The position numbers and the translations under genes were made by a program. Below are positions 7,624 through 57,967 of a DNA stretch of 64,000 nucleotides, one piece after another (the stretch's first letter is position 1; every line of letters starts with the position of its first letter). Under the pieces are notes generated by a model, which made no database searches, was not told the origin of the DNA, and worked only from the letters and a program-made list of their open reading frames with translations. The DNA is from a virus (Duplodnaviria > Heunggongvirae > Uroviricota > Caudoviricetes): the IMG/VR virus record IMGVR_UViG_3300007735_000926, positions 133,683-197,682 of that record. One strand, written 5' to 3'.

Positions 7624-7705
7624 TAGCGTTGACAGGACTCGAACCTGCATGCTGTTAAGCGACTGATTTTGAGTCAGTTGTGAATACCAATTCCACCACA
7701 ACGCC
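7624..7705 (-). tRNA. tRNA-Leu (anticodon CAA), type II with long variable arm
   Basis: Hand fold: acceptor GGCGTTG/CAACGCT, D stem GTGG/TCAC, anticodon loop CTCAAAA, variable arm, T arm GCAGG-TTCGAGT-CCTGT. Confidence 0.7.
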
Positions 7706-7715
7706 GTTTTGAGAG

Positions 7716-7789
7716 TTGTCCAGAGGGGACTCGAACCCCTGACCCGACCCTTATAAAGAATCCGCTCTAACCAACTGAGCTACTGGACG
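7716..7789 (-). tRNA. tRNA, anticodon loop TTTATAA (apparent UAU, Ile reading AUA); C1-A72 mismatch
   Basis: Cloverleaf: D arm GCTC-AGTTGGTTA-GAGC, anticodon stem GATTC/GGGTC, T arm AGGGG-TTCGAGT-CCCCT. Confidence 0.6.
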
Positions 7790-7856
7790 TTTGAATTTTA
7801 CTGTAGTTTTTATCCGATCTTTTCTTCCACCAGAGATTTACAATTAGGGGTAAGGG

Positions 7857-7945
7857 TAAGAGCGGTGGGATTCGAACCCACAACCGTTCTGGACGGATTT
7901 GACCGATTATGAGTCGGCTGGTTTAACCATTCACCTCACACTCTT
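7857..7945 (-). tRNA. type II (long variable arm) tRNA with CAU anticodon loop CTCATAA; unusual combination
   Basis: 89 nt; 3-bp D stem with long D loop, anticodon stem GCCGA/TCGGT, variable arm hairpin CCGT-CCAGAA-ACGG, T arm GTGGG-TTCGAAT-CCCAC. Confidence 0.5.
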
Positions 7946-7960
7946 ATGAAAATTAAAGTG

Positions 7961-8045
7961 TGGCCACATCGGGACTCGAACCCGAACGCCCGAAGGGGCA
8001 GCAGATTTTAAATCTGCGGTGTCTACCAAGTTCCACCACATGGCC
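7961..8045 (-). tRNA. tRNA-Leu (anticodon UAA), type II
   Basis: Anticodon stem GCAGA/TCTGC with loop TTTAAAA, variable arm GCCC-CTTC-GGGC, T arm TCGGG-TTCGAGT-CCCGA. Confidence 0.65.
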
Positions 8046-12188: not shown

Positions 12189-12680
12189 TCAGCCACCGAA
12201 ATCTTCAGTGGCGAGGATGTTTTCACGCTTGATGGTGAAGCACTCAGGCTTCTCACCAGAGGAAAGCTTGGCTGCTTCCGAGGGAGTGAGATAGCTTGTG
12301 AAGGTGTTCTTGTCAACCTTCTCACCATTCACGAAGTAGATAGTCTCGCAGCGTGAATCTGTTGGATACAAGCGGACATATTCAGTGTCCTTGTGGGTGA
12401 TGATGTATGGAAAGCTCTTCCACTCACCCCAAGGAAGCTCTTGGACTTCACCACGAGTTCCTTCTTCAATGCCCTGCTGGACAGAAGAGAGATTGGCGAA
12501 ATTGATTCCGGCGCGGCACACTGCACTGGTGTGCTTTTCGAGCAGCACTCCTGCCTTCTTGTGGGCAGCAGCAGGGGATGGATTGGACTTCCAGACCGCT
12601 TTAACAAACTGACCCTTGCTATTGAGGATGCGATTCAGGATTTCTTCAGCGGTGAGAGACTGTGTAGTAGTGTTGGGCAC
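12189..12680 (-). CDS. hypothetical protein
   Basis: 163 aa; region noticeably GC-richer than neighbours. Confidence 0.45.
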   Translation of the reverse strand: MPNTTTQSLTAEEILNRILNSKGQFVKAVWKSNPSPAAAHKKAGVLLEKHTSAVCRAGINFANLSSVQQGIEEGTRGEVQELPWGEWKSFPYIITHKDTEYVRLYPTDSRCETIYFVNGEKVDKNTFTSYLTPSEAAKLSSGEKPECFTIKRENILATEDFGG

Positions 12681-12720
12681 GCGTTTATTTTGGTGTAGTT
12701 TTTAAAATATGATTGGATTT

Positions 12721-13116
12721 TCAGTTGCTGGCCAATTTGAAAGATTTGAGATACCGAGCGAATTCGACATTGTTCGTGTGAACATCATCTTCTACTTCCA
12801 ATCCTTTGATATCAAGACCATAGATACTCTCAGGAACAATGAAAGCAATCGCGCTTAGAGAATTATTCAGATCAGGTTCATGGAAACAAGCATAATCGAC
12901 TTCGAAAGATTCCAGTTCCGCCATGCGCTGTTTCATGTCTTCCGAGCCACCACCATCCAACAGGATGAATGTCTTGTGGTGCTGTGCGAAGTTCTTATAT
13001 ACCTTTCTGCCGCCGTATTTCAAGCCATACTCAATAGCGGCATGACCTGCTTGGATTCCCTTTTGAATTCCTGAAAGGTTATACATTACAAAGAAATACA
13101 TTCGTGATTGTCGCAT
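12721..13116 (-). CDS. possible PTH2-like peptidyl-tRNA hydrolase paralog (divergent)
   Basis: MYFFVMYNLSGIQKGIQAGHAAIEY resembles PTH2 core VVRxDLxMGKGKxAAQxSHAA; weaker than 56919-57341. Confidence 0.3.
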   Translation of the reverse strand: MRQSRMYFFVMYNLSGIQKGIQAGHAAIEYGLKYGGRKVYKNFAQHHKTFILLDGGGSEDMKQRMAELESFEVDYACFHEPDLNNSLSAIAFIVPESIYGLDIKGLEVEDDVHTNNVEFARYLKSFKLASN

Positions 13117-13182: not shown

Positions 13183-14217
13183 TTAGTTGCCGCTAAGAAC
13201 CAGATCACCCCGCTTGATGAATTTCTCACGCTGCGATGGATTGCTAAGAGCAGCGAGGAAATTGCACTTGTTGTCCATTCCAAGACCAAACTCAGAGGAG
13301 AACGCTTTGCGTCCAAGATCCTTGTTTGCGCCTCCAGTGCCGTTTCCACGAGTCCAATAGTCAGTGGCACCTTGGGCGAGGTAGAACATGTTGCCACCAC
13401 GATTGCCAGCACCATTCCAAGCGAGTGCCACAATCTCAGTCATCTGATTGAATGAGCGAGTGGAAAGCTTTTCTTCAGCCTTCGTCTTGTCTGCCAAGAA
13501 CCCAGCAACGAACCTTTCAGCCTTCGACAGATCACATTCAATCGAGAACAATTCTGCCATGTTTTCTTCGAAGACACGACGATTATGCAGAGTGCTGTTC
13601 ACAATCTGTGCCATGTTCATGATGCGAACACTGGCGTTCTTGGTATGGGCGATATTGAATCCCTGATTGCCCCTTGAAGCATACGACGAACGAACAGTGT
13701 TCATACAGACAGTGCGATGAGTCGTATCATAATACGATGCATTCTTAGTGCCATCGTGGGAAGTGAACAGAGAGAAGAATGCCTTGCACTCACTTCCATC
13801 AGGAAGCTTGATATTGGATTCGTTGTCGAATTCCACAGAGACAAAGAAGTTCTTCAGTCCCGAGAGAGTTCCAGCGGAAACAATCTTGTAATTGATACCA
13901 TCCAGAGATTCCTGAAGAGCATCAAAAAGCACTTCATTCTGAAGGATTTCATACTTGTCAGATGCCACATGCACAGGGCGGAAATCGCCATTGATATCTT
14001 CGATGTTGCGAAGATCTGCCACAATAGTCTTCCAGCCTTCCAGTGGAACTTCCACTCCTTCGATGTTGACGTTGGCTTGTCCTTCCAGATAGGGAATGAA
14101 CAGAGGCTTGATGATTTCCTTGGTCAATGGAACCTGATGGTTCTCATCGAGCTTGTGCCATGCACGGTCTCCAAAGGTGATGACGCGATCAGTTCCGACT
14201 TCAATTTCGTGTGCCAT
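13183..14217 (-). CDS. DUF932-family (phage/plasmid-related TIGR03299-like) protein
   Basis: 344 aa with conserved SLFTSHDGTKNASY and ALAWNGAGNRGGN segments typical of DUF932. Confidence 0.45.
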   Translation of the reverse strand: MAHEIEVGTDRVITFGDRAWHKLDENHQVPLTKEIIKPLFIPYLEGQANVNIEGVEVPLEGWKTIVADLRNIEDINGDFRPVHVASDKYEILQNEVLFDALQESLDGINYKIVSAGTLSGLKNFFVSVEFDNESNIKLPDGSECKAFFSLFTSHDGTKNASYYDTTHRTVCMNTVRSSYASRGNQGFNIAHTKNASVRIMNMAQIVNSTLHNRRVFEENMAELFSIECDLSKAERFVAGFLADKTKAEEKLSTRSFNQMTEIVALAWNGAGNRGGNMFYLAQGATDYWTRGNGTGGANKDLGRKAFSSEFGLGMDNKCNFLAALSNPSQREKFIKRGDLVLSGN

Positions 14218-14294
14218 ATATTTGTTGGTTTAGTTGGTTTGTTGGGTGTGCCCCGATTATATCCTAGTTTTTAAACGAATTTTTTCCGTGTCGA

Positions 14295-14573
14295 TCAGTA
14301 GACGATGAGACTTTTTCCCAAATTGTCCATGCGGATTCTGCCGACACTTTCCAATAGAATTTTGGCATTTTCCGTATCATAGTCCTCGCCCAGATCCTTG
14401 GCATCAAGAATCATTTCAAAGAATGTTTCTGACACTGCTGCCGAAAACTCTCGAAAGCTATCGCATATGATACCAGTTGTGGTATCACCAAACATTCCAC
14501 GACCACTATAATCTTCATAGATTTCCATGTCGTAACCATGATCAACGATCAATTCTGCGATTTCTCTTTTCAT
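14295..14573 (-). CDS. hypothetical protein
   Basis: 92 aa acidic. Confidence 0.4.
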   Translation of the reverse strand: MKREIAELIVDHGYDMEIYEDYSGRGMFGDTTTGIICDSFREFSAAVSETFFEMILDAKDLGEDYDTENAKILLESVGRIRMDNLGKSLIVY

Positions 14574-17346: not shown

Positions 17347-17934
17347 TTAAAAGTCTCGAATGATCAATTCACAATTTTTAACTTTCTGAATCGTTTCAAA
17401 ATCTTCGACTTCAATATTGTCAATGATCATGAGCATCATTTTAATAAATTCGCCATGCGATACAATGATAACCAGTTGATTGTCTTGTGTCTTCAACCAA
17501 TTCAAAAAGTTCCATGCCCGCTGATAACAATCAGCAAATGATTCGCCGTTTTCAGGACGACGATAGAAATCAAACAAATGATTTCGTTCTTCTCTAGTCT
17601 TGAAAGATTCATATTCTTCCCGAAGTTTACCCCATTCGCGTTCACGAATAAGAGGTGTTTCAATTTTTTTATATTTTTGTTTCGAGAATGTCAAATGCTT
17701 TTCAATCACATTTGAAGTTTCTTTCGTTCTCACATACGGACTATTGACAAATAATACATCATCATGACGATTGAAGTTAGTCAGGTAAAGATGATCAATT
17801 ATGCCACCTGCGACTTTGGCTGCTTGAACTACACCTGTATTGGTCAGAGGAACAGCCCAATCAGGCATTTTAAAATACACTGACTTGTCTATGTTTCCCT
17901 TGGATTGTCCATGTCGAACGATCAATAATTTCAT
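17347..17934 (-). CDS. histidine phosphatase superfamily (phosphoglycerate-mutase-like) protein
   Basis: N-terminal LLIVRHGQSKGN catalytic RHG motif; ends 1 nt before RNA ligase gene. Confidence 0.6.
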   Translation of the reverse strand: MKLLIVRHGQSKGNIDKSVYFKMPDWAVPLTNTGVVQAAKVAGGIIDHLYLTNFNRHDDVLFVNSPYVRTKETSNVIEKHLTFSKQKYKKIETPLIREREWGKLREEYESFKTREERNHLFDFYRRPENGESFADCYQRAWNFLNWLKTQDNQLVIIVSHGEFIKMMLMIIDNIEVEDFETIQKVKNCELIIRDF

Positions 17935-17935
17935 A

Positions 17936-19327
17936 TCAATTCTCCTCCTCCATGTTGGTTTCTCCTTTATCTCTATCGGCAGATTCCCCGATGAGAAACT
18001 TTGGGGATTTATATTTCAATGCAATTTTATTAATATCTGTCTCGTTACGAAGAACGACACCTTCATTGACAACACCAGTGGTGCAGAATTCACATGTCTT
18101 ATCCAGATACTTCGCCTTCAAAGATGTTAGGAATTCTTCTCTCCATACTGTTGGTTCAAGATCTGAAGTGTATGGAATATCAAACATATCTTTCGCCAGT
18201 CCCTTGTAATAGACTGGAACATGCTTCAGTCCTTTATCAAGACAGAATGTTTCAATTTCACTCCAAGAGCATTCACGAACACCATTGGGAGTGTTCTCAG
18301 TCATACGATAGACAAAGAAATCACATTCGCCTTGTTTGACACCATAATCGTAATTCTTTTGAACCATCTTGTTGGCAGAAGAATAACCGACAATCTCACC
18401 ATAAATAGTAAAATTCTTAGGGATCTTACCATCCAAACGAGATGCGACCACGCCCCAAACATCATCAGTGAATTTACCATCACGACGGTTCTTTAAGACC
18501 GACCGTGAAGAATACACCAACTTGTGTTCTGTTTCAACAATATTGAATCCAATTTTCTGTCCGATATATCGAAAGATATTGAATGGCTTTCTGCAAAGAA
18601 TATTGCCATACACAGCAGATGTTCCGTGCCACTTTGAAGATACCACGATAGAGTCATCAGGATTAATTTTAAAAATGTTTCTACCCAATTGCTCAGTAGA
18701 TCCGTGGAAATGCCAATGACCGTCTACGATCAAGCTACCAATACCCTTCTTGTTCTTATCGTAGAAATAATTGATGCCATTGTATAGAGGCTTGCGAATA
18801 GGAAGAGGGAACAGGCGAATAGTCTTTTCAACCCATTTAGGAATGCGCTTCTTGGATTCATTTTGAACACCAACCTTACCCGCTGTTGCCACATATTTCT
18901 TCACCAATAGATCATCCTTGACAGTATCAAAAGATTCTCCTGATTTGAAAAAGGATTCAGAAATATTATAATATTCAGAGAGCTTGGATACCTTGAATAG
19001 AAATCCTTGGCTCGGAATCTCACGTAGCTTCACAGCCTTAACTCTCCCATTTTTCGATGAGAAGAAACCCTTAGTCTTACCATCAGCATTCAATTCTGCT
19101 TTATCCAACAGATTTGCCCATGACAAGAACTTCTCCGAGATACAAGATTCCACTGGAAAGTATACCAATTTTTCACCTTTTTGATAACTGCCTTTGGCGA
19201 CGATTACATCACCACCAAAAACAGTAGCCAATTCAAGGCGATCAGCATTTGGATGTGGTTTCAATTCAGGACATTCGATTACCGTAGCTAGGTAATTCGG
19301 ATCACAATTTTTAGAAATACTAATCAT
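17936..19327 (-). CDS. RNA ligase, Rnl2 type, fused to N-terminal tRNA-binding OB-fold (Myf/Trbp111/CsaA-like) domain
   Basis: N-terminal KPHPNADRLELATVFGGDVIVAKG... (tRNA_bind-like); nucleotidyltransferase motif I SKWHGTS (T4 Rnl2 has KIHGTN), motif IV IYGEIVG, motif V EGVVLR, C-terminal KYKSPKF. Confidence 0.55.
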   Translation of the reverse strand: MISISKNCDPNYLATVIECPELKPHPNADRLELATVFGGDVIVAKGSYQKGEKLVYFPVESCISEKFLSWANLLDKAELNADGKTKGFFSSKNGRVKAVKLREIPSQGFLFKVSKLSEYYNISESFFKSGESFDTVKDDLLVKKYVATAGKVGVQNESKKRIPKWVEKTIRLFPLPIRKPLYNGINYFYDKNKKGIGSLIVDGHWHFHGSTEQLGRNIFKINPDDSIVVSSKWHGTSAVYGNILCRKPFNIFRYIGQKIGFNIVETEHKLVYSSRSVLKNRRDGKFTDDVWGVVASRLDGKIPKNFTIYGEIVGYSSANKMVQKNYDYGVKQGECDFFVYRMTENTPNGVRECSWSEIETFCLDKGLKHVPVYYKGLAKDMFDIPYTSDLEPTVWREEFLTSLKAKYLDKTCEFCTTGVVNEGVVLRNETDINKIALKYKSPKFLIGESADRDKGETNMEEEN

Positions 19328-19496: not shown

Positions 19497-20462
19497 TTAT
19501 TGTGCAGTTGTAGTTACTTCTTGATTGATTTTTTCACACTCTTGAACGATCTTCCAAACAGCATTCGCACCACGACCGAATTTCTGGAGCTTACCTTCTC
19601 CGACCATTTCACGGAGGATAATGCCAGCAATCTGTCCCGATACGCCCAACCTATCACAGATGCGATCCAATGTCAAATGAGGAGGTTCATCCATTGCAAG
19701 GATCTCTTCCTTGCGCTTTTCATTGGCAGGAACCTTGCCAGACTTCGACTTGGCATCTTCCGCAGGTGGGACATAAAGACCCTTGAAATCAAATCCATGA
19801 GAAGACATGAGCGCAATATGAGTCTTAGTATCACCAAAACGATTCTTATAAACATCAATCAAGCGCATGGAATTGTCTTCCTTATCGACAGTGATACGCA
19901 TGTTCACATCGACAGCATGGATAACATCAGTTCCACCCTTGGGAAGACCAGTGACAGTGATATGAAGAACGAACACCAAGACACAGCCAGTCTCCTTGGC
20001 AGTGGAAAGAAGTAGATCCTGCGCATACTGATAGAATTCCTTCTTCTTCATGTCCTTGTTGGAACGAAGAGCTTGGAAGCTATCAACAACCATGAAATCG
20101 TAATGATGCATGGCAGCAGCGATTTCCTCCACATCCTTGATATGAGCAACATCAACATCGGTCACACCCAAACGCTTACAAGTGTAAGCAATCTGAATAT
20201 GGGATTCTTCTCCCGAAGCGATTGCGGTGCGCTTGCCTTGAGTAGTGAGCATCTGCGAGACCTGACACAGGAGAGATGACTTGCCAGCACCCGGAGTGCC
20301 AGTAATTGTGATGGCACTACCGGGCATCAGCCCCTTGTAGAATTCGTTACCAAACATCAGGTCAATCTCATCGCAACCAGTTGACATTCGATTGTAGAAT
20401 GCATCTGGAATTTCAATGGATGAGCACTTGGCAAATTTGGTTTCTAGCGTGTTGAGTTGCAT
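19497..20462 (-). CDS. RecA-superfamily ATPase (KaiC/RadA/DnaB-C-terminal-like) with C-terminal winged-helix
   Basis: Walker A GTPGAGKSSLLCQ, Walker B FMVVDSFQ, C-terminal LTLDRICDRLGVSGQIAGIILREMV. Confidence 0.5.
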   Translation of the reverse strand: MQLNTLETKFAKCSSIEIPDAFYNRMSTGCDEIDLMFGNEFYKGLMPGSAITITGTPGAGKSSLLCQVSQMLTTQGKRTAIASGEESHIQIAYTCKRLGVTDVDVAHIKDVEEIAAAMHHYDFMVVDSFQALRSNKDMKKKEFYQYAQDLLLSTAKETGCVLVFVLHITVTGLPKGGTDVIHAVDVNMRITVDKEDNSMRLIDVYKNRFGDTKTHIALMSSHGFDFKGLYVPPAEDAKSKSGKVPANEKRKEEILAMDEPPHLTLDRICDRLGVSGQIAGIILREMVGEGKLQKFGRGANAVWKIVQECEKINQEVTTTAQ

Positions 20463-27392: not shown

Positions 27393-28280
27393 TTAATGTT
27401 TTTTCGGTCTTTTTGAAAACTTAACATATACTCCAGCATCTTTCAAGGTTCTTCTTATCAAATAATGGGATACGTCATATCCATCTTCTAATAAAGCTTC
27501 TCGAACTCTATTTGTGCCGAAATTGTCATAATGTTTTATTATCAACTCTATTACATTCTGATCCAGATTTTTAAATTTTTTATTTTTATTAGCTTTTGAT
27601 ATTTTTTCTCTAGCTTCTTCAGAAAGTGTATATCCTTCCTGTTTTCTCCTCAACCAATCTCTTTTATTACCTTCCGAAATTTTATCTTTCCATGTTATAT
27701 CCCTACCAGTCATTTTTTCCCGCATTTTATTTCTTGTCTCTAATGAGATTTCTCTTTCGGAATTTATTTTTTTAAGCAACTCTTTGTGGTCTTCTGTCAT
27801 TTTTTTACCAAAATTAGGGTGGTTCTCGCCTCGCTGTTTCAGACCCTGCTGTTTTCTTATATCATTCATTTTTGTTTTGAATTCATTATCGGCCCATCGA
27901 TTTTTGGAAATTCTGCTCATATTTTCAATGTAATTATTATATGTATCAGTTCCTTTTGGCGGGGTATTCACTGAACCAAATGGTGAAATATTACAAAGAT
28001 TATCTATGCCTATTTCTTTAATTTTTATCGCTTCTAATTCCAGAGCTTCTTCCTCTAATAAATTTTCTTCTATTTTCTCACCAAAAATTTCACCACCTTC
28101 TCTTATAGTTTTTTGGCATTTATTCAATAAATATGTGTTGACTTTATTAGGATGACTACCTCTTATCAAATAACTTAAATGAGCTTGTAATCTTTTTTTC
28201 TTGCCTTTGCCAACATAAATAATTTCTTTCGGTTCATTTTCAAATTGTTGATATATAAAATATACATAATAATCGTTCAT
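27393..28280 (-). CDS. GIY-YIG homing endonuclease
   Basis: N-terminal YVYFIYQQFENEPKEIIYVGKGKKKR (GIY...YIG-like spacing); very AT-rich codon usage; lacks standard motif; track start at 28295 is a TTG. Confidence 0.5.
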   Translation of the reverse strand: MNDYYVYFIYQQFENEPKEIIYVGKGKKKRLQAHLSYLIRGSHPNKVNTYLLNKCQKTIREGGEIFGEKIEENLLEEEALELEAIKIKEIGIDNLCNISPFGSVNTPPKGTDTYNNYIENMSRISKNRWADNEFKTKMNDIRKQQGLKQRGENHPNFGKKMTEDHKELLKKINSEREISLETRNKMREKMTGRDITWKDKISEGNKRDWLRRKQEGYTLSEEAREKISKANKNKKFKNLDQNVIELIIKHYDNFGTNRVREALLEDGYDVSHYLIRRTLKDAGVYVKFSKRPKKH

Positions 28281-28310
28281 GTATATATTTAACAAATACT
28301 ATACCAAAAT

Positions 28311-29330
28311 CTATTTACTTTTCATTATTTTTTTAATGTTTTCGACTTCAGCCATTTCATTTTTAGCAAAAAGAAAAGCCGAATAATTTTTATAATTGTC
28401 TATAACATGAATTGCGTAATCTTTTCGAGTTGTAAAAATACTCGAAAGATTATTTTTTATTTTATACAATTTTTCTCTAAGAACTTTGTATTCAGAATCT
28501 ATTATCATCATATCTTTCGAAATAATCGATAAAATTTCAAAATCAATATTTTCCAAATTACATTTATTATCGAAATAGAAATCAATTTTTTTATTATATG
28601 TTGATATCTGAGTCAGAAAATAATGAGCGGAACAATACCAACTGCCCTTGATTTTACGCATTTTGTTGGTTTCTGAATAAAGGACAACGCCTTCTTTTCC
28701 AACCCACATTTCAACATCATCGATACATTCCTGAATGGAATTATAATGATATTTTTGTGGGCGAGAAATATCCAGATCCTGCGCCAAATCATCCAAATGA
28801 TATTGAGAGAACATTTCTCCTGTAATCTTATGGATACCACCGATCAACGATAGCTTTGGTTCAGGGAAACCACCAATAACAATAACATTGTTGTTGGTCT
28901 GCCACTCGCAAAGATACGTGATCTCGGGGTCTGCTATCACATAATCAAAGAATTTTTTATATTTCTCCAACAAGAAATCCAATTCGTAACCATTTTGAAG
29001 CTGGCGTAGATCTGTGGTTCCACGAGTTCTAGCTACAAGCTGCCCTTTATACGAATCAAAAATACCCAGAGAACCATCAAGCTTTTCATAAGCATAGAAA
29101 GACTCCTGCATGGGAAATTTATCCAAATCTGGTTGTTCCGACCAATTAAAGAATTTAGGAAATGAACGTGAAACAATGAAATGATCCGACTTGCGGATTA
29201 CCATTGAACGAAACTTCAGAGTTTCTTCCGTCCACTTGACGCCAATTTCTTTGGGAGTGATCAGCCAACAATCGTCGCCAAACACCACACAATCTTTGAA
29301 ATTAAATTCTTCTGAATTTGGAAGTCTCAT
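28311..29330 (-). CDS. rnlA: RNA ligase, T4 RnlA (Rnl1)-like
   Basis: Motif I YEKLDGSLG (T4 Rnl1 KEDGSL), motif IV TYLCEW; size 339 aa. Confidence 0.55.
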   Translation of the reverse strand: MRLPNSEEFNFKDCVVFGDDCWLITPKEIGVKWTEETLKFRSMVIRKSDHFIVSRSFPKFFNWSEQPDLDKFPMQESFYAYEKLDGSLGIFDSYKGQLVARTRGTTDLRQLQNGYELDFLLEKYKKFFDYVIADPEITYLCEWQTNNNVIVIGGFPEPKLSLIGGIHKITGEMFSQYHLDDLAQDLDISRPQKYHYNSIQECIDDVEMWVGKEGVVLYSETNKMRKIKGSWYCSAHYFLTQISTYNKKIDFYFDNKCNLENIDFEILSIISKDMMIIDSEYKVLREKLYKIKNNLSSIFTTRKDYAIHVIDNYKNYSAFLFAKNEMAEVENIKKIMKSK

Positions 29331-32985: not shown

Positions 32986-33498
32986 TTATTCTTCGGTTAC
33001 GTTGGTGATTTCAAAAGTATGCTTGTAACCACTTGGATATGTAATGGAAATCAGATTGTTTCGTTCATCATATTCATAGGTAAACTTGTCACCATCTGGA
33101 TATGTCTCAGAAATACGATTGTTCCGTTCATCGTATTCAAAAGTATACTTTTCACCACTTGGAAATGTCTTGGAAATAAGATTGTTCCGTTCATCATATT
33201 CCAACTTGGGAAATTGTGATTTCATTTCATCAGTATATTCCTCAAAGGGAACAACACGGAGAACCTTGATCTTGTCGGTGACACTCTTATCATTTTCATC
33301 AATAACAGTTCCGAGAATCTCAATTTCAAGAAGAATGAAATTTTCAGTTGCATCGTAGTAATTCAGAGTGTTTTCCATCTTCTTACAAAAATGGAATCCG
33401 TGTTGACACATTTTTAGCTTATCAGAAGTATATGTCTTACCGACACGGTAAACTTGATCCCGGCACTTGAAATTGTGAGTTGCTTTGTAAGCGATCAT
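32986..33498 (-). CDS. YD-repeat protein paralog (Cys/His N-domain + 4 YD repeats)
   Basis: MIAYKATHNFKCRDQVYRVGKTYTSDKLKMCQHGFHFC... then YDERNNLIS repeats. Confidence 0.6.
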   Translation of the reverse strand: MIAYKATHNFKCRDQVYRVGKTYTSDKLKMCQHGFHFCKKMENTLNYYDATENFILLEIEILGTVIDENDKSVTDKIKVLRVVPFEEYTDEMKSQFPKLEYDERNNLISKTFPSGEKYTFEYDERNNRISETYPDGDKFTYEYDERNNLISITYPSGYKHTFEITNVTEE

Positions 33499-34283: not shown

Positions 34284-34859
34284 TTATTCTTCGGTTACGA
34301 TGGTGCGTTCAAAACTGGTCACAGCGCCAGTTGAATTAGTTTCCGAAATACGATTGTTATTTGAATCGTATTGATAGGTATACTTGCTACCATCTGGATA
34401 TGTCGCAGAAATCAGATTATTCCTTTCATCGTATTCATAGATAATCTTGTAACCACTTGAATCTCTCTTGGAAATAAGATTGTTACGTTCATCGTATTCA
34501 TAAGTATACTTGTTATCATCTGGAAATGTCTTGGAAATCAGATTATTCCTTTCATCATATTCCAACTTAGGAAATTGTGATTTCATTTCATCAGTATATT
34601 CCTCAAAGGGAACAACACGAAGCACCTTGATCTTGTCGGTAACACTTTTATTATCTTTATCAATAACAGTTCCGAGAATCTCAATTTCCAGAAGAATGAA
34701 ATTTTCAGTTGCACCGTAGTAATTCAGAGTGTCTTCCATCTTTTTACAGAAGTGGAATCCGTGGTTACACATTTCCAATTTGTTAGAGGTATAAGTTTTA
34801 CCAACACGATAAATTTGATTCCGACACTTGAAATTGTAGGTGGCTTTGTAAGCGATCAT
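34284..34859 (-). CDS. YD-repeat protein paralog
   Basis: MIAYKATYNFKCRNQIYRVGKTYTSNKLEMCNHGFHFC... then 5 YD repeats. Confidence 0.6.
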   Translation of the reverse strand: MIAYKATYNFKCRNQIYRVGKTYTSNKLEMCNHGFHFCKKMEDTLNYYGATENFILLEIEILGTVIDKDNKSVTDKIKVLRVVPFEEYTDEMKSQFPKLEYDERNNLISKTFPDDNKYTYEYDERNNLISKRDSSGYKIIYEYDERNNLISATYPDGSKYTYQYDSNNNRISETNSTGAVTSFERTIVTEE

Positions 34860-35916: not shown

Positions 35917-36042
35917 GTTCGTTCGTTAAACATACAACCGTCCACGGTTTCAGGAATCGAACCTGTATGTTTAGTCTCTATCGGATCGTTAGACACCTAC
36001 GTATGTGTCCCTATTCTGCAATGTTATATACCATTCAGAAAA

Positions 36043-36903
36043 TTAGAAGTTCTGAGCGACCTTAGCACGAATGCCAGCGAGCGTCTGTTCCTTGGTAATC
36101 ACACCATCCTTGAACACCTGCTCAAAGGCACAATTCTTAACGTCGTCCCAAGTGGCTTGATCCTTCATAACAAAGTTACCATCCTTTTCATAGACAGCAA
36201 TCAGTCCCTTGGCACTCTTCTTGAGTCCGTCATCAGTCTTCGGGTCTTTGAAGATTTCAACACCCTGAGTCTTACCATCAACCGTCACTTCGCCATAAGT
36301 GGACTTGACAGCGAATCCGTGAGTGTCACGGGTAACGATGGCGTCCATCGTGATAGCACCCTGATAAGTGAAGCTTCCGATACCATACACAAGGTTGGTC
36401 GAAGCAAACCCCTTGGCAGCGAGACGTTCACAGATAGCGGTAGCACGATCAATGGTGATACTGTCTCCATAGATGGCTCCAATATGACTATCAAGCTGAT
36501 GGTAGCCTGTGCTAGTAGCGGTGCCGCCAAAGATTTCCCAGAGACACTGAATCATGCCCTTAACTTCAAGCTCGGTAAGTTCTTTGCCCTTCAGTTCGCC
36601 AGTTTTTTCATTGGGATCAAGTTCGTAAATTTTACCTTGATGGACGATAATTTCATCATTGGTATAACCAGTCACAATCTTAACTGGATCACCCGAGTCA
36701 GGACGAATGACAACCTTACCATCACGGGCCATGATCTTGTCCTTGAGAATAGCAGCGATACCACCATCAGGATTCACAACGTTCCAGAAGTCCCACGTAT
36801 CCGAAACGATACTCGCGATACCATCAGGGTAGGTTTCAGTAATGAGGCGTTCGAAAAGAAGGAGTTCGCCAAGGCTTTGCTTTTGAGTTGCGTTTAGTTT
36901 CAT
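36043..36903 (-). CDS. nadV: nicotinamide phosphoribosyltransferase NadV/NAMPT, C-terminal half of split gene
   Basis: VSDTWDFW, VIRPDSGDP, IYGDSI, YGIGSF, IFKDPKTDDGLKKSAKG align with NAMPT residues ~300-490; has own ATG and motif copy at 36940-36960. Confidence 0.65.
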   Translation of the reverse strand: MKLNATQKQSLGELLLFERLITETYPDGIASIVSDTWDFWNVVNPDGGIAAILKDKIMARDGKVVIRPDSGDPVKIVTGYTNDEIIVHQGKIYELDPNEKTGELKGKELTELEVKGMIQCLWEIFGGTATSTGYHQLDSHIGAIYGDSITIDRATAICERLAAKGFASTNLVYGIGSFTYQGAITMDAIVTRDTHGFAVKSTYGEVTVDGKTQGVEIFKDPKTDDGLKKSAKGLIAVYEKDGNFVMKDQATWDDVKNCAFEQVFKDGVITKEQTLAGIRAKVAQNF

Positions 36904-36989
36904 AGTGTTTGTAGTATGGGGCAGTGTTTTATATTTGAATTTATTATAACGTAGTTTTTATTGATTAAATTACAGCTTTAAGTGTAAAT

Positions 36990-37700
36990 ATGTATATGAC
37001 TGAATGTTCAGAACGACCACAAGATACCAAATCATGCACCAAATGTCAAGAAGAAAAACCATTGAACGAGTTTCCTAAGAGTTCTCGATTTAAATCTGGT
37101 TTTAATTCCCAATGCAAATATTGTTTAAATACCGCATCTAAAAAATGGAGGGATGAGAATTCCGAAGACTTCAAAAACCGACGCAAGGAGCATTATTGGA
37201 AAAATGTTGATAAAATGCGAGAAGAAAAACGTCAATATGTTGAAAGATCAAAGCCTCAAAAAATTGCTTATGATGCTGAGTATCGAAAGGCCAACAAAGA
37301 TAAGATAGCAGCTTACAAAAAGAATTGGGAATCTAAAAAGAAAGACGATCCAATTTTTAAAATCAAAAGAAATTTAAGAAGACGAGTTCACCATGCTTTG
37401 ATGGGAAGAACCAAATCGGATAATACGTTTAATCTTATTGGCTGTTCAGCAGAAGAATTTAAAGCTCACATTGAAAGTCTTTGGTTGGAAGGTATGTCTT
37501 GGGATAACTATGGACCCTCTGGATGGCACGTTGACCATATCAAAGAATGCCATACGTTTGATTTATCTGATCCAAAACAACAGAAAGAATGTTTCCATTA
37601 TTCCAACCAAAGACCTCTGTGGGCTAAAGATAATCTTAGCCGTTCACGGCCATCACATAATCGTAATATTCGTAAGACTCATCAATCTCGTCAGGGATAG
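36990..37700 (+). CDS. HNH homing endonuclease inserted between the two nadV halves
   Basis: Plus-strand ORF with N-terminal zinc-finger Cys cluster and GWHVDHIKECH HNH motif; Lys-rich. Confidence 0.6.
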   Translation: MYMTECSERPQDTKSCTKCQEEKPLNEFPKSSRFKSGFNSQCKYCLNTASKKWRDENSEDFKNRRKEHYWKNVDKMREEKRQYVERSKPQKIAYDAEYRKANKDKIAAYKKNWESKKKDDPIFKIKRNLRRRVHHALMGRTKSDNTFNLIGCSAEEFKAHIESLWLEGMSWDNYGPSGWHVDHIKECHTFDLSDPKQQKECFHYSNQRPLWAKDNLSRSRPSHNRNIRKTHQSRQG

Positions 37701-38466
37701 ATTCAATCATAACGGCAGTTCCAAGGCACATGCAACTGTGTTCGGACGCTGCAACAGACACACCAACCATTTCCTTGTCACTATCAGCATTGTAATACTC
37801 CTCAAGGAAGTCGATGGCAGGAAGCGTATCAGTTCCGACAAAGCTAAGAAGGTGAGCAGCACCACTCATGGTAGCAGCTTCAAGACCCATCATACCACGG
37901 AAAGAGAAATCGTGTCCTTGGAATTGGACGAAATCAATCATTTCAGGATTGGTCTTCTTAGCCCACTCATTAAGAATCCTACGATAAATAAGAGCGGTCG
38001 TTGCACTGGTGCTACAAGCCCAAGTCGAGCAAGACAGAATGGTTTCAATGGCATTGGTAAGCCAGAAGAAACGAGCATCAGTGTTGAACACGACGAACAT
38101 TGGGACACGAAGATCAACGTTAGAACCTTCAGGCAGCGCCCAAATTTCAAGCGGAAGATAACCAAGAGCGTGAAGATCACGAATATGCTGGTCGCCAATG
38201 TTGTTGACGCCAAGGTAATTCAGAAGACGACGACCATACTTCTTGGTAACTTCATCCAAAGGACGAGAGAAGAAAGTGCGTTCCCATTCATCAAGCAGAT
38301 ACTTCTTCATGAAGTATTGCAGACCAAAACTGATCACCTTATTGATTCCCTTGACGCGAGTGCCGCGTGCAGTGAGATTCGAAAAGACCAGTTCGCTATT
38401 GCTAGGATACTGGCGGCGATGGTCAACTTTGTAACCGTCTACTAAGAGTGGAGCGAGTGTATTCAT
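37636..38466 (-). CDS. nadV: nicotinamide phosphoribosyltransferase NadV/NAMPT, N-terminal half of split gene
   Basis: VDGYKVDHRRQY, FQGHDFSFRGMMGLEAA, SFVGTDT, AASEHS align with NAMPT residues ~1-285. Confidence 0.65.
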   Translation of the reverse strand: MNTLAPLLVDGYKVDHRRQYPSNSELVFSNLTARGTRVKGINKVISFGLQYFMKKYLLDEWERTFFSRPLDEVTKKYGRRLLNYLGVNNIGDQHIRDLHALGYLPLEIWALPEGSNVDLRVPMFVVFNTDARFFWLTNAIETILSCSTWACSTSATTALIYRRILNEWAKKTNPEMIDFVQFQGHDFSFRGMMGLEAATMSGAAHLLSFVGTDTLPAIDFLEEYYNADSDKEMVGVSVAASEHSCMCLGTAVMIESIPDEIDESYEYYDYVMAVNG

Positions 38467-38496
38467 AATGTTTGTTGTATTTATTGAGGTTGTTGA

Positions 38497-38531
38497 GATT
38501 ATATTGTAGTTTTTATTGAAAAAATATCAGT
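38497..38531. repeat. 35-bp direct repeat copy A (includes gene-upstream motif) flanking LAGLIDADG gene
   Basis: GATTATATTGTAGTTTTTATTGAAAAAATATCAGT, repeated at 39531-39565 with one mismatch. Confidence 0.6.
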
Positions 38532-38549
38532 CTGATACTAAATAAGATC

Positions 38550-39458
38550 ATGACCAAGCATATCAAAAAAGAGTATTCCGATGTATTGAATGAGCTTTAT
38601 CCAACTTCAATCTCAATCGATGAGATAGCCGAGAGAATGAAACTGAGTAAACATACGGTTGAAGTATATGCTAGGAAGTTGGGTTTGTCAAGACCAAAAC
38701 CTGAGCCATGGAATTCATTATCAGAAAAAGATGAGAGATTGATATTGGATATGTATGAGTATGGTGATTTTGATGAATTGTCTCAGTTGGTTGGAAGAAG
38801 TAAACACGCTATTTCAGAATGGGCTAGGAAGAGAGGTATTAAACGTCAAATCAATATCAATCGAAATGGTGATATATCTATACTTCTTAATGGTTCTTTG
38901 CAATCGTTCTATTGGTTAGGTTTATTGGCATCTGATGGATATGTCAGCAAAGATGGGCATCTCATGTTCTCACAAGGGGAAAAAGATAAAGATATCGTAG
39001 AATCATTTGCATTGTATGTCAATTCTGCTGTTTATCAATTTGAAGTTGAATCTGGTTACAATACTCAACCTAGAACACTTTATAGAGTCAATGTAAAAGA
39101 TATTAACGCTGGAAAGGAAATTAGGAATTTATGGGGGTTGGATGATGAAGATCAAAAAACATACTCAAGTATATCGTCGGAATTTTTAAAAACAAAAGAA
39201 CAAGCAATGGCATTCTTGATTGGATTCTTTGATGGGGATGGATATCTCAGACCAAATTTTGCTGGTAAAATTGAAGTTCATTCTAATTGGTTGCAATTCC
39301 TAAATGAAATCTGTAAATTAGTCGGATTGGATTACGAAGGTAAAATCAATAATCGTGGATATGCCCGAATCACAATCAAAAAATCATTTATGCTTCAATT
39401 GAAAGCTTTTATCGAATCTAACAATTTGGTCCACAATCAAAGAAAATGGAACTTATGA
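38550..39458 (+). CDS. LAGLIDADG homing endonuclease with N-terminal HTH
   Basis: Two LAGLIDADG motifs: LLASDGYV and FFDGDGYL. Confidence 0.6.
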   Translation: MTKHIKKEYSDVLNELYPTSISIDEIAERMKLSKHTVEVYARKLGLSRPKPEPWNSLSEKDERLILDMYEYGDFDELSQLVGRSKHAISEWARKRGIKRQININRNGDISILLNGSLQSFYWLGLLASDGYVSKDGHLMFSQGEKDKDIVESFALYVNSAVYQFEVESGYNTQPRTLYRVNVKDINAGKEIRNLWGLDDEDQKTYSSISSEFLKTKEQAMAFLIGFFDGDGYLRPNFAGKIEVHSNWLQFLNEICKLVGLDYEGKINNRGYARITIKKSFMLQLKAFIESNNLVHNQRKWNL

Positions 39459-39530
39459 ACGTCCACGAGTAGAGGAGCTAATGTATTCATATTTTTATTG
39501 TATTTTTGTTGTATTTACAGGAGTTGCAGT

Positions 39531-42824: not shown

Positions 42825-43172
42825 TTATTCGCTAACTTGAAGCTCAAGAAAACGAACATTTTCTTCAGGCAAATCTTTAAAATATTTCAATGCTCTCTTT
42901 TCGAGATTTTTGAAAAGATTTTCAATTTCATTTTGAGTATTGGGGCAGATCGGTAAAAAATAATCTTTGCTCAAAGCTCTGGCAACTGCAATCTTGATGC
43001 CTAATTTTTTATCGAAACGATCAATCGGATTACAGAGTGAATACCCGTAGTAAACCCCATTTTCTTCTCTAACAGCAACTACAATTCCTCGTGGATTATT
43101 CTTTCGATCTCTGATGAATTGCTTAATTATATTTTTATTATCAGTGTTCATATTTTTAAAAATTACTTTCAA
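42825..43172 (-). CDS. hypothetical protein; paralog of 23926-24186
   Basis: Shared PRGIVV...LGIKIAVARA core. Confidence 0.45.
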   Translation of the reverse strand: MKVIFKNMNTDNKNIIKQFIRDRKNNPRGIVVAVREENGVYYGYSLCNPIDRFDKKLGIKIAVARALSKDYFLPICPNTQNEIENLFKNLEKRALKYFKDLPEENVRFLELQVSE

Positions 43173-43863
43173 TTAGTCTATGCTCTTTGACCTGCTCAAT
43201 GGCAAGAATCGTGGAATAACATCCGTTCATTTCAACCCAATGATAGGAATGGAAGTGACCACAGTAATGCATTTTAGCTTTTGAAAGCTTGATCAATTCA
43301 TCGTGATCAATGCGCTCTTTGTAGCAATCATTCCATAGCTCAGGATCTTTTCCACACCATCCAGCTAGTCCTTCTTTATCAAAAGGACCATTCCAAGTTG
43401 GGGCGCTATGGGTTACGAGAACATCACATTCTGTAATCAATTCAGGTTTGAGAACAAATGTCTCATCGTGCCAATAACTCTTACCGGGAACACGATACAA
43501 ACGATCAATGCTGATGGCACCACCAACAAAAAGGAATTTCTCTCCATTGAGTTCTTTGGTGGTATAATCTGGAAGCAATTCAAAATTACTCATTTTGATA
43601 CGAGAGTCGCCATTGAAATACGCGGGATCATCGTGGTTCCCCCGGATCGACATGAAGTGAATATTCTTTTTGGTAAAGTAATCATTCAAATCACCACAAG
43701 CAATCATTTCTCCATTCTGAGTATTTTTAAAACCGATACCGAGATCACCAACGCAAATCAGGTAGCAATTCTCAATACCCTGATGATGGATGAGATTCTT
43801 CAACCGACCAAATGCGCCGTGTATGTCTCCTATCAAAAGGACTGGTTTAATATAGTTGCTCAT
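43156..43863 (-). CDS. calcineurin-like metallophosphoesterase
   Basis: GDIHG, GDLGIG, RGNHD, THSAP, GHFH motifs. Confidence 0.55.
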   Translation of the reverse strand: MSNYIKPVLLIGDIHGAFGRLKNLIHHQGIENCYLICVGDLGIGFKNTQNGEMIACGDLNDYFTKKNIHFMSIRGNHDDPAYFNGDSRIKMSNFELLPDYTTKELNGEKFLFVGGAISIDRLYRVPGKSYWHDETFVLKPELITECDVLVTHSAPTWNGPFDKEGLAGWCGKDPELWNDCYKERIDHDELIKLSKAKMHYCGHFHSYHWVEMNGCYSTILAIEQVKEHRLIESNF

Positions 43864-47756: not shown

Positions 47757-48512
47757 TTACGCGAAATACTTGCGACCATCAAGAATGATTTGTGCCGCCA
47801 GTTCTTCATCAAATTTATACTCTACTTCCGTATTGTCAATAGTCTTTTCTAGTTTTTGGAACTCTTCGTTCACAAAAGCTTCAAGCTGCTCTCTTGTATA
47901 TTTCTCAGGAACAGTTTTGATATCCATTAGAAAATTGTGATACTCTGGATCAAATTCTTTGACATTGACCATGTATCGACCATCTGTGAAAAATTCGATA
48001 CCCACTTTGCAAAGACGCAAAATTTGAACGAAATTCTTAGGGCTGAATCCATATTCAGTAACTGCCTTTTTACGCTTACCGCCAAGCTGTCCACTTCGTT
48101 CTCCAGTAGCCAGTTTAAGTTCGCTAAACACATAACCTTTGAGACTTTGCTTGAGAACAGAAGTTTCAATCAAATTGTATTTGTTATCACGAATAACATC
48201 AAAGTGTGGATGTTTGAAAACAAATGAACTTTCAGGAGCGAACAAAATTTCAAGAACTTGGGTATTGCTCTTTCGAAGCAGCTTGAGATACCTAGTCAAT
48301 TCGTAATAGGTAGCGTCAACATCTCCCGTTTGAACAATACTGTCAATCGTGTTTAGATTGGCAAGATACTTTGGATCGGTGGCCACGAAAAGTCCACGAT
48401 AATCAATATCGCTTGTAGGTGTATTAAGACCGTAGAGATTTGATCCGCCGACGATCTGAACGATAAGTTCACCCCCGCATTTTTTAAAAGTTTCGTGTTC
48501 AGTGATGTTCAT
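47757..48512 (-). CDS. predicted nucleotidyltransferase (pol-beta superfamily GS...DxD)
   Basis: IVGGSNLYGLNTPTSDIDYRGLFV. Confidence 0.5.
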   Translation of the reverse strand: MNITEHETFKKCGGELIVQIVGGSNLYGLNTPTSDIDYRGLFVATDPKYLANLNTIDSIVQTGDVDATYYELTRYLKLLRKSNTQVLEILFAPESSFVFKHPHFDVIRDNKYNLIETSVLKQSLKGYVFSELKLATGERSGQLGGKRKKAVTEYGFSPKNFVQILRLCKVGIEFFTDGRYMVNVKEFDPEYHNFLMDIKTVPEKYTREQLEAFVNEEFQKLEKTIDNTEVEYKFDEELAAQIILDGRKYFA

Positions 48513-53290: not shown

Positions 53291-53300
53291 GTTTTTATTT

Positions 53301-56601: not shown

Positions 56602-56922
56602 TTATCGTTCAATCAATCCTTCTTCAGTTACTTCTAAAATTGTATATGCTTTTGACCAATCATCAGACATCGTTTTGTGGCGATTTTGAGCTTCCTCTAA
56701 TGTGTCGTAATATTGTATTTTATCTGCTGTCCTGATTTTCTCTACGCCATTTCGAACCACCTTTGACTCTAGCATAGGGAAGCCAGATGTTAAATATCCT
56801 TCGCCATGCTTCTTTTCAAGAAGATATTCATGTGGATTTAAAAATGTCAAACAAAACTTGCCAACTGGATGTTCAATAGTTGGTCGATATTTTCGGTTGG
56901 TATGTTCAATATAGATTTTCAT
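56602..56922 (-). CDS. hypothetical protein
   Basis: 106 aa. Confidence 0.4.
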   Translation of the reverse strand: MKIYIEHTNRKYRPTIEHPVGKFCLTFLNPHEYLLEKKHGEGYLTSGFPMLESKVVRNGVEKIRTADKIQYYDTLEEAQNRHKTMSDDWSKAYTILEVTEEGLIER

Positions 56923-57341
56923 AGTAATGGCAAGTGATCAGTAAGTCCGATAAACTTTTCGTCCCAATTTGGGCCGATTGATAGCGCAGTGAATGTTTTC
57001 ACTCCATTGAATTCGGTCGCTCCATTGTCCTCAACAATATACGAGATCAATCCATTGTCAAGAGCTTTTTGATGAAGTTCATGAAGTTCTTCTTCGCTGT
57101 TGACATAGACACAAATCTTACGAAATGAGTTTTCGAGCCAATGAGTAATTTCCTCAGCTTGTTCGGTGTTGTAGTGTCGAGTCTCAAAAACACCCAATGT
57201 GGTTGAATAGTCATGCGTGTAGCTGGCCCGCATACCTTTGGTAAGAAACGCCATACTTGCATGGGCAACTTGACTACAATATTTTCCAGTTCTAAGATTT
57301 GGAAATTTTCTGACTACAATAACTTGTTTAGTGTTTTTCAT
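56919..57341 (-). CDS. peptidyl-tRNA hydrolase, PTH2 family
   Basis: QVIVVRKFPNLRTGKYCSQVAHASMAF and TFTALSIGP align with PTH2 VVRxDLxMGKGKxAAQCSHAA / TVLGIGP. Confidence 0.6.
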   Translation of the reverse strand: MKNTKQVIVVRKFPNLRTGKYCSQVAHASMAFLTKGMRASYTHDYSTTLGVFETRHYNTEQAEEITHWLENSFRKICVYVNSEEELHELHQKALDNGLISYIVEDNGATEFNGVKTFTALSIGPNWDEKFIGLTDHLPLL

Positions 57342-57559: not shown

Positions 57560-57967
57560 TTAACGCAATTTCAAAGTATTTTTGATATTTTGTTCCTGTC
57601 TTGAAAGAACTTCCTCTGGGACATTATGCACATTTTGCCCGCCATGACGATTTTCAAGCACCAGTGAAAAAATCATCATATTCCGTTTTTCACCTTCTCT
57701 GAGATAAAAATTGAAATCAGATTCTTTTGTATTGGTGTTTGCGACCACAATGGTATGAGTCGAAGGATCATCACACAATTTCAAAAATTTTTCTTGACAA
57801 GATTTATGTGCGGCACCCAATTTCGAAGGATCAAAATTATAATTACCATTTTCATCGGTAAAAAAATCATCTGCGCAACAAATTGCTGAACCGGGAGCGA
57901 TAATGTTTGCGAAGGTTGACTTTCCAGCCCCGCTGACTGCTCTCAAAAGGATTAATCGTGTTTGCAT
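57560..57967 (-). CDS. P-loop kinase (AAA_33-like; possible polynucleotide 5'-kinase)
   Basis: Walker A AVSGAGKST; small 135 aa kinase fold similar to Pnk kinase domains. Confidence 0.35.
   Translation of the reverse strand: MQTRLILLRAVSGAGKSTFANIIAPGSAICCADDFFTDENGNYNFDPSKLGAAHKSCQEKFLKLCDDPSTHTIVVANTNTKESDFNFYLREGEKRNMMIFSLVLENRHGGQNVHNVPEEVLSRQEQNIKNTLKLR

Follow-up and report, generated by a model that had tools for sequence, protein, structure and literature searches.

The stretch of DNA analysed here (the window; 64,000 nucleotides in its whole length) covers positions 133,683 to 197,682 of the IMG/VR virus record IMGVR_UViG_3300007735_000926, assigned to the Caudoviricetes, and carries on its minus strand two adjoining open reading frames (ORFs): one for an ATP-dependent polynucleotide (RNA) ligase of 463 amino acids (aa) that belongs to a long phage subfamily of Rnl5-like proteins (17936..19327), the other for a branch-1 histidine phosphatase of the phosphoglycerate mutase (PGM) superfamily with 195 aa (17347..17934). 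A first-pass annotation had described these ORFs as lying 1 nt apart, and direct reading of the sequence confirmed this arrangement and showed the genes to be tightly coupled: the junction (17932..17953, minus strand) runs ...GGAGGAGGAGAATTGA-T-ATG or, in a longer reading, ...ATGGAGGAGGAGAATTGA-T-ATGAAA, so that the intergenic gap amounts to a single nucleotide. A Shine-Dalgarno-like purine run, GGAGGAGGAG, is located within the last ligase codons approximately 7 nt ahead of the phosphatase ATG, and the scan revealed no terminator-like site between the two genes. Because of the 1-nt gap, the Shine-Dalgarno-like GGAGGAGGAG and the lack of a terminator, ligase and phosphatase are predicted to be co-transcribed and probably translationally coupled. 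The genes around the pair are all co-directional, and both gene calls recur in independent assemblies of this virus from Logan. Apart from the terminator result, the scan was uninformative for the delimitation of an operon; promoter- and terminator-like sites in the region were no commoner than in shuffled sequences.

The predicted ligase comprises an N-terminal OB domain (approximately residues 1-145), a helical linker (approximately residues 160-200, or 150-205 when taken more widely) and a nucleotidyltransferase (NTase) domain (approximately residues 205-445). Pfam profiles matched residues 13-111 (PF21189, "PHA02142 OB-fold domain", 3.5e-10) and 227-440 (PF09414, RNA_ligase, 6.4e-10), and in PHROGs the protein was aligned end to end with phrog_968 ("RNA ligase", 3.3e-57). 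The translation contains KPHPNADRLELATVFGGDVIVAKG, KWHGTS and EGVVLR; the NTase motifs are represented by K232-W-H234-G235-T-S (motif I), S274-R275 (Ia), E311/G314 (III), E422-G423 (IV) and K438-x-K440 (V). As the motif residues are invariant in an alignment of 34 homologues, the lysine-adenylylation apparatus is intact, with K232 as the predicted nucleophile, and in this respect the ligase call of the first-pass annotation stands. The AlphaFold2 (AF2) model, built on the 34 homologues (pLDDT 88.5, pTM 0.82), stops about 20 residues past motif V in a single helix and is devoid of a C-terminal appendage domain. Its best Foldseek matches were all to NgrRnl from Naegleria gruberi and extended over both domains (E approximately 1e-17, target-normalised TM 0.71-0.73), with T4 Rnl2 (1e-8) and other RNA ligases ranking behind; NgrRnl is likewise the sole solved relative detected by sequence, via the N-terminal domain (phmmer 2e-3).

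The combination of an N-terminal OB and a C-terminal NTase domain without C-terminal appendage is the defining feature of the Rnl5 family, the activity of which is the ATP-dependent sealing of 3'-OH/5'-PO4 nicks whose 3'-OH strand is RNA (PMC4408790). With the NCBIfam model TIGR02306 (DRB0094/DraRnl family) the protein was matched at 3e-18, the N-terminal domain alone being aligned, and reached 65.7 bits against a trusted cutoff of 151.15; its motif I, K-W-H-G-T-S, deviates from the K-x-D-G of the Rnl5 type. On account of the score below the cutoff and of this motif I, the protein is filed as a member of a Rnl5-like long phage subfamily and not as a DraRnl orthologue. Its architecture suggests an ATP-dependent nick-sealing polynucleotide ligase of the Rnl5 design.

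A tblastn search retrieved the ligase from 560 phage records, many of them annotated as "RNA ligase"; in 376, 80% of the query or more is covered. The closest relatives from cultured phages, those of Synechococcus phages B3 and B23, are 37% identical, and no DNA near-identical to the window was found in cultured phages. The long subfamily, to which the B3 protein and mycobacteriophage proteins also belong, is set apart from the 340-aa prototypes by insertions in the OB domain, the helical linker and insertions in the NTase domain; a biochemical characterisation of it was not found in the literature. DraRnl homologues in Aeromonas, Caulobacter, Mycobacterium and Sinorhizobium phages have been known since the family was named (PMC4408790). 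According to PMC5397189, deletion of DraRnl renders Deinococcus radiodurans more sensitive to ionising radiation, and the physiological roles of Rnl5 ligases are there termed "uncharted".

Two further features of the ligase family were observed in passing. Among the cysteines of the NTase domain, C362 never varies and the pair C412-x-x-C415 is kept in at least 90% of the 34 homologues; these clade-specific cysteines, which are missing from the mycobacteriophage homologue, could be a metal or structural site. At several related loci (L023:3863-6693, likewise L022, L024, L035 and L036; L025:5580-8379) a break in the Rnl5-like ligase gene falls exactly within motif I (K-x-H-G / T-S): its N-terminal part is an ORF that ends with ...SCKMHG followed by CVKHDTPIETLEYGF... 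(the N-terminal half of an intein, starting with Cys1), the C-terminal ORF begins with the complementary intein half ending ...NILIHN|TSAVYG (database proteins with this half carry PF14890, Intein_splicing), and a free-standing endonuclease-like ORF of 328 aa (DUF7487, 2e-7; a weak, sub-cutoff restriction endonuclease match) is inserted between them. This is the split-intein "fractured gene" arrangement; the ligase gene of the window itself is contiguous.

The N-terminal domain had been interpreted in the first-pass annotation as a Myf/Trbp111-like tRNA-binding module and its fusion to a ligase as unusual, and neither statement is supported. The tRNA_bind family (PF01588) was not matched by the full protein at E<=1 nor, in separate searches with the N-terminal segment (141 or 200 aa), at E<=10, so that the tRNA-binding claim fails by the refuting condition given with the first-pass annotation; the family recognised in this segment is the Rnl5/PHA02142 OB domain. 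A profile of the N-terminal domain searched against the PDB gave NgrRnl at E = 6e-8; the next matches, below significance, were mostly OB domains of the tRNA_bind type (MetRS-C, 0.01 and 0.016; 3bu2, a "putative tRNA-binding protein", 0.12; PheRS beta, 0.2). Similarly, the modeled domain was aligned by Foldseek over approximately 110-137 columns with YtpR (3e-4), PheRS beta (6e-4), 3bu2 (5e-3) and MetRS-C (1.6e-2). Given these sub-threshold and structural matches, the Rnl5 N-terminal domain looks like a distant relative of the Trbp111/EMAP-type OB fold, and some ligase homologues bear the JGI name "tRNA-binding EMAP/Myf-like protein". In NgrRnl, it is the ATP gamma-phosphate with which the domain makes contact, and both the first reaction step, lysine adenylylation, and nick sealing depend on it (PMC7261155, PMC4408790). 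Since OB plus NTase is the family-defining architecture (PF21189, phrog_968) and is found across the 560 phage records, the presumed fusion is the normal state of a large family.

The phosphatase was assigned to PF00300 by Pfam (1.3e-22) and to phrog_12933 by PHROGs (1.7e-22). Its RHG motif occupies residues 7-9, and the catalytic core of R7, H8 (the nucleophile), N14, R69, E98 and H160 is invariant in an alignment of 32 homologues, which share in addition a clade-specific conserved block, FDFYRRPxGGESFADCYQR. The AF2 model (pLDDT 94.8) shows the PGM-like alpha/beta fold, with TM values of about 0.75 to GpgP, PspA, Rv3214 and CobC. The protein is accordingly named as in the first-pass annotation, i.e. 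as a histidine phosphatase of the phosphoglycerate mutase family, and its catalytic core is intact. The structural neighbours (GpgP, PspA, Rv3214, a riboflavin-pathway phosphatase, TIGAR, CobC and dPGM) confirmed the fold and were uninformative as to the substrate, all of them being small-molecule enzymes with similar scores. The best NCBIfam families were CobC alpha-ribazole phosphatase, PspA and dPGM, with no equivalog cutoff approached, and a sequence search against the PDB yielded nothing significant.

Upstream of the ligase gene lies the gene of a RadA/Sms-like (KaiC/DnaB-C-type) P-loop ATPase (19497..20462, minus strand; 321 aa; TIGR00416 sms, 3e-25; PF06745, 2e-10). The protein is devoid of the RadA zinc-finger and Lon-like domains, and its C-terminal part resembles a winged-helix domain by eye. 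Among the neighbours of the ligase slot in related phages, this ATPase gene, on the upstream side, is the most constant, the gene order being ATPase-[ligase]-phosphatase. The order is kept in close relatives (uncultured viral contigs), where the gap measures 4 nt, and the same-strand linkage of ligase and phosphatase (0.3-8 kb) holds down to 50% identity of the ligase and 38% identity of the phosphatase. Three types of ligase occupy the slot: the long Rnl5-like protein; a canonical 332-aa Rnl5 (K-x-D-G; loci L051 and L074-78, motif I being K-I-D-G in L051); and, at L037-39, L042-43 and L045-46, an unrelated 336-aa Rnl2-like protein (PF09414/phrog_548) without OB domain and with a C-terminal extension, which displays the motifs KLHGTN, FGEWCG, EGIVWR and FKTKDEKH and whose stop codon overlaps the phosphatase start by 4 nt. 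The pattern is read from these sequences as non-orthologous replacement of the ligase with retention of the phosphatase. An identity of the L037 ligase with the Rnl1-type ligase that the window encodes at 28311-29330 was considered and rejected, the two being unrelated (PF09414/phrog_548 versus PF09511/phrog_562).

At more divergent loci (38-40% identity of the phosphatase; group C and L211) the phosphatase is part of a loose island of the order Rnl5-long-(RlaP)-PTH2-phosphatase-kinase (AAA_33)-Rnl1, interspersed with unrelated genes, e.g. a DNA methylase and a Band_7 protein. The L211 island also holds NADAR, HD and PARP-like genes (L211:3466-4071, 12437-13015 and 13249-14481), an indication of a wider counter-defence island in which RNA repair is combined with functions related to ADP-ribosylation. 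A T4-like lineage has the phosphatase gene flanked on one side by an ATP-dependent DNA ligase gene, its immediate upstream neighbour in L109, and on the other by gp59/gp32; in L053 it is 1.9 kb distant from a kinase with 50% identity to the 135-aa kinase of the window, in L098 an RlaP gene is found at 1.3 kb, and in other lineages PTH2 is a recurrent close neighbour. The genomic association of ligase and phosphatase survives both replacement of the ligase and rearrangement of the locus.

For a quantitative comparison the phosphatase loci were dereplicated to 47 clusters and the loci of the kinase (57560..57967, minus strand; see below) to 51 clusters. A polynucleotide ligase gene was present within 3 kb of the phosphatase in 14 of the 47 clusters and within 10 kb in 24 of them, compared with a crude chance expectation of 9% and 27%, respectively, calculated on the assumption of three ligase genes in a genome of 200 kb (binomial tails 3e-5 and 4e-4); as the clusters are phylogenetically non-independent, these figures are merely indicative. 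A kinase was located within 6 kb of the phosphatase in 7/47 clusters. The kinase itself has an Rnl1 gene within 10 kb in 26/51 and within 3 kb in 20/51 clusters, often directly adjacent and with several gaps of <=100 nt, the pattern expected of a polynucleotide kinase (Pnk) partnered with Rnl1 and one that resembles the classical tRNA repair pair. The ligase partners within 3 kb differ accordingly: 14 nick-sealing enzymes versus one Rnl1 for the phosphatase, three versus 20 for the kinase (Fisher p = 9e-7). These counts suggest two arms, one of kinase and Rnl1 and the other of histidine phosphatase and nick-sealing ligases (Rnl5, Rnl2-like, DNA ligase).

We tentatively favour, at somewhat less than even confidence, a heal-and-seal function in which the phosphatase prepares broken polynucleotide ends for the Rnl5-like ligase within a wider set of RNA-repair genes. 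The ligase would be adenylylated at K232 with the aid of its N-terminal OB domain and would transfer the AMP to the 5'-phosphate, after which attack by the 3'-OH would seal the break. The phosphatase would most likely remove a terminal 3'- (or 2'-) phosphate via a phospho-His8 intermediate and in this way provide the ligase with the necessary 3'-OH. The pair would act together with a Pnk-like kinase, Rnl1, RlaP, PTH2 and a metallophosphoesterase, genes that are scattered in the window and clustered in relatives, presumably in order to mend RNA cut by host nucleases. The gene coupling, the domain identities with their intact motifs and the conserved linkage belong to the observations; both enzyme activities, a polynucleotide substrate of the phosphatase and the biological target are what we infer. 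That the kinase has no fused phosphatase domain makes a 3'-phosphatase acting in trans plausible. In jumbo phages, multiple RNA ligases, polynucleotide kinase, phosphoesterases, RlaP and tRNAs are found combined (PMC7824862). A more general proposal, which we hold to be possible with still greater reserve, is that the branch-1 clade of large phages represents unrecognised polynucleotide end-healing 3'-(or 2'-)phosphatases that work specifically with nick-sealing ligases (Rnl5, Rnl2-like, DNA ligase), as a second arm parallel to kinase-Rnl1 in the counter-defence against nucleases. The functional pairing claimed in the first-pass annotation, whose main point of an unusual tRNA-binding fusion fails, gains moderate comparative-genomic support from linkage, slot replacement and partner preference.

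Several observations weigh against the heal-and-seal interpretation. About half of the 47 phosphatase clusters are without a ligase neighbour, in L079-L086 the phosphatase comes immediately after the ATPase and the surrounding 10 kb are free of ligase genes, and L025 has the ligase without phosphatase. In cultured phages the phosphatase occurs in just 10 records, none of them with the gene beside a ligase (none lies near it in Xanthomonas RTH11, Acinetobacter ME3 or Ab1-TPeters), and conversely none of those inspected among the 560 cultured-phage ligase records has an adjacent phosphatase; Synechococcus phage B3, in which a "helicase" gene precedes the ligase, is devoid of the phosphatase. Fusions of the phosphatase to ligase or kinase were absent from the top 120 profile relatives. 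As histidine phosphatases cleave monoesters, a further enzyme would have to act beforehand on 2',3'-cyclic ends, and the window offers alternative end-healing candidates: a calcineurin-like metallophosphoesterase for 2',3' or 3' ends (43156..43863, minus strand; 235 aa; PF00149, 2.4e-12; phrog_1649, 9e-22) and a cREC_REC protein (PF20274) beside a NIF/HAD-like protein (approximately 52751-53741), the latter pair in view of the proposal that RNA ligase-linked cRec acts as a 2',3'-cyclic phosphodiesterase (PMC7824862). The end-healing phosphoesterases of that study comprise 2H, cRec, HAD, calcineurin-like and HD enzymes; histidine phosphatases or PGM are unmentioned there, the 2016 survey of Burroughs & Aravind lying outside this negative.

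The strongest competing explanation, though one we regard as rather unlikely, is that the phosphatase is an ordinary small-molecule enzyme (acting on a nucleotide, an NAD-related compound or a sugar phosphate) that stands beside the ligase through inherited gene order, the stable pair being ATPase and phosphatase and the ligase a variable mobile cassette. The exclusively small-molecule Foldseek neighbours, the best family matches (CobC, PspA and dPGM, all below cutoffs) and the missing fusions are in agreement with it, as are the ATPase-phosphatase loci without ligase and the targeting of the ligase gene by mobile elements (split intein and homing endonuclease, L023 and L025). Gene neighbourhoods point in the same direction, as some phosphatase relatives are found beside NAMPT or PRPP synthetase: PRPP synthetase is encoded within 3 kb of the phosphatase in 5 clusters, NAMPT and PRPP synthetase are upstream in L212, an IMPDH-like gene adjoins the phosphatase in L053, and one bacterial relative lies in an ABC peptide-transporter operon. 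However, each occupied slot contains a ligase, of three types, instead of assorted cargo; where the locus is rearranged, ligases are again found close by, as with the DNA ligase in the T4-like lineage; the partner preference relative to the kinase is clear; and the translational-coupling signals tie the phosphatase to the ligase in the window.

Improbable, if less so than a tRNA-specific role, is a function of ligase and phosphatase in phage replication, recombination or repair, with DNA or RNA-DNA junctions as substrates and with nicks that end in a ribonucleotide or a 3'-phosphate being cleaned and sealed, in place of the mending of tRNA or RNA cut by host nucleases. The constant upstream RadA/Sms-like ATPase, the "helicase" gene ahead of the ligase in phage B3 and the location of the phosphatase between DNA ligase and gp59/gp32 in other lineages would fit such a function, and so would the duplex nick sealing of characterised Rnl5 enzymes, the radiation sensitivity on loss of DraRnl (PMC5397189) and the nick-sealing nature of the close phosphatase partners (14 versus one Rnl1 within 3 kb). 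In contrast, the phosphatase of the group C loci and L211 is found among RNA- or tRNA-directed genes (PTH2, RlaP, Pnk-like kinase and Rnl1), and in a mycobacteriophage a polynucleotide kinase gene is located approximately 3.5 kb from the homologous ligase. That genuine tRNA binding by the N-terminal domain directs the ligase to cleaved tRNAs, which would make the two genes a dedicated tRNA repair pair, is very improbable: the near-significant profile matches, the Foldseek matches to YtpR, 3bu2 and MetRS-C, the JGI label and the tRNA genes and tRNA-related enzymes of this genome are outweighed by the absence of PF01588 even at E<=10, by the significant match to a domain that contacts the ATP gamma-phosphate and occurs in every member of a large family, by the duplex-nick activity of characterised Rnl5 enzymes and by the existence of the kinase-Rnl1 pair, which resembles classical tRNA repair.

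The first-pass annotation had combined the pair with other genes of the window into an RNA end-healing and sealing toolkit. The gene set is broadly real and includes members that had not been listed (RlaP, the metallophosphoesterase and cRec), but it is dispersed over approximately 40 kb. The RnlA-like ligase at 28311..29330 (minus strand; 339 aa) was verified as a T4 Rnl1-type enzyme with intact motifs KLDG/EGVVLY/KIKG (PF09511, 2.4e-11; TIGR02308, 4.8e-14; phrog_562, 3e-37); its gene is directly followed by that of a GIY-YIG homing endonuclease with NUMOD3 (27393-28295). The P-loop kinase at 57560..57967 likewise proved correct: the 135-aa protein has the Walker A sequence AVSGAGKST and matches phrog_2071 (5e-30; positions 14-147 of a 282-position profile) and phrog_505 ("polynucleotide kinase", 2e-4), its homologues score with PF13671 (AAA_33), and a fused C-terminal HAD (DxDxT) 3'-phosphatase domain is absent; the search of its sequence against the PDB gave nothing significant. 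It is probably an unfused polynucleotide 5'-kinase, as predicted from these profiles. This unfused kinase family was seen in loci L137-L209, and a metallophosphoesterase gene abuts the kinase in the L192 lineage. RlaP is encoded at 47757..48512 (minus strand; PF10127, 1.2e-16; phrog_388, 4e-32). Instead of several PTH2 hydrolases a single one was found (56919..57341, minus strand; 140 aa; PF01981; phrog_1866). Toxins of the toxSAS/CapRel type generate pyrophosphorylated CCA ends on tRNA; a role of the phosphatase together with PTH2 in the cleaning of modified tRNA 3' ends was considered, for which there is no direct support beyond the adjacency to PTH2.

A cluster of four tRNA genes (7624-8045, minus strand) encodes Leu(CAA), Ile(TAT), "Met"(CAT) and Leu(TAA), the length of the "Met"(CAT) tRNA, 93 nt, exceeding what is usual for tRNA-Met or tRNA-Ile2. 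The window also encodes YqeY and NAD-salvage genes. The NAMPT coding region (approximately 36000-39500) looks interrupted, with LAGLIDADG endonuclease ORFs around it, and a DUF7487 ORF divides the gp32 gene of L212; phages of this group have many homing endonucleases in the neighbourhood of their repair and salvage genes. Three paralogous small proteins, each with DUF7666 and RHS repeats, are encoded at 1741-2556, 32986-33498 and 34284-34859. The closest cultured relatives of a neighbouring gene in the window are from freshwater Synechococcus myoviruses, which indicates that the virus is probably an uncultured, large, cyanophage-like one.

If the phosphatase does prepare ends for these ligases, a new enzyme superfamily would be added to the RNA/DNA end-healing repertoire, the pairing would point to a type of damage (3'-phosphate nicks) that is repaired by nick-sealing ligases in phages, and a compact, kinase-free phosphatase-ligase pair would be at hand for biochemistry. 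If it is uninvolved, what remains is a phage RNA ligase of an ordinary kind with a metabolic phosphatase as its neighbour. The module, if functional, would be a variation on the heal-and-seal theme with a superfamily that was not found linked to this theme in the literature, the 2016 survey of Burroughs & Aravind being outside this negative.

Compared with known systems, the ligase shares with Rnl5 (DraRnl; NgrRnl, PDB 5cot/6vt*) the N-terminal OB and C-terminal NTase domains, all NTase motifs and the lack of a C-terminal appendage; its N-terminal domain is homologous in sequence (profile E = 6e-8), and the whole model is closest to NgrRnl. It differs in its length (463 versus approximately 340 aa), in the insertions in both domains and the helical linker, and in motif I, which is K-x-H-G as in T4 Rnl2 in contrast to the K-x-D-G of NgrRnl (PMC7261155). 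Most components listed for the RNA repair sets of jumbo phages (Iyer et al. 2021, PMC7824862) are present in the window, which adds, beside a ligase, a histidine phosphatase, a class absent from that catalogue. As in the T4 Pnkp and Rnl1 heal-and-seal system, in which 3'-phosphatase and 5'-kinase act on the ends before an ATP-dependent ligase joins them, the window too encodes an Rnl1-type ligase and a Pnk-like kinase; in contrast to T4 Pnkp, its kinase is without the fused HAD phosphatase domain, the proposed phosphatase is a histidine phosphatase and not a DxDxT acylphosphatase, its ligase partner is a nick-sealing enzyme and not Rnl1, and the genes are dispersed over approximately 40 kb. 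With the branch-1 histidine phosphatases (CobC, PhoE, PspA, GpgP/Rv2419c, Rv3214, dPGM), finally, the phosphatase shares the fold and the core R-H-G...R...E...H; unlike these, it belongs to a distinct, mostly phage-borne clade with a conserved block of its own, which is tied genomically to polynucleotide ligases and not to metabolic operons.

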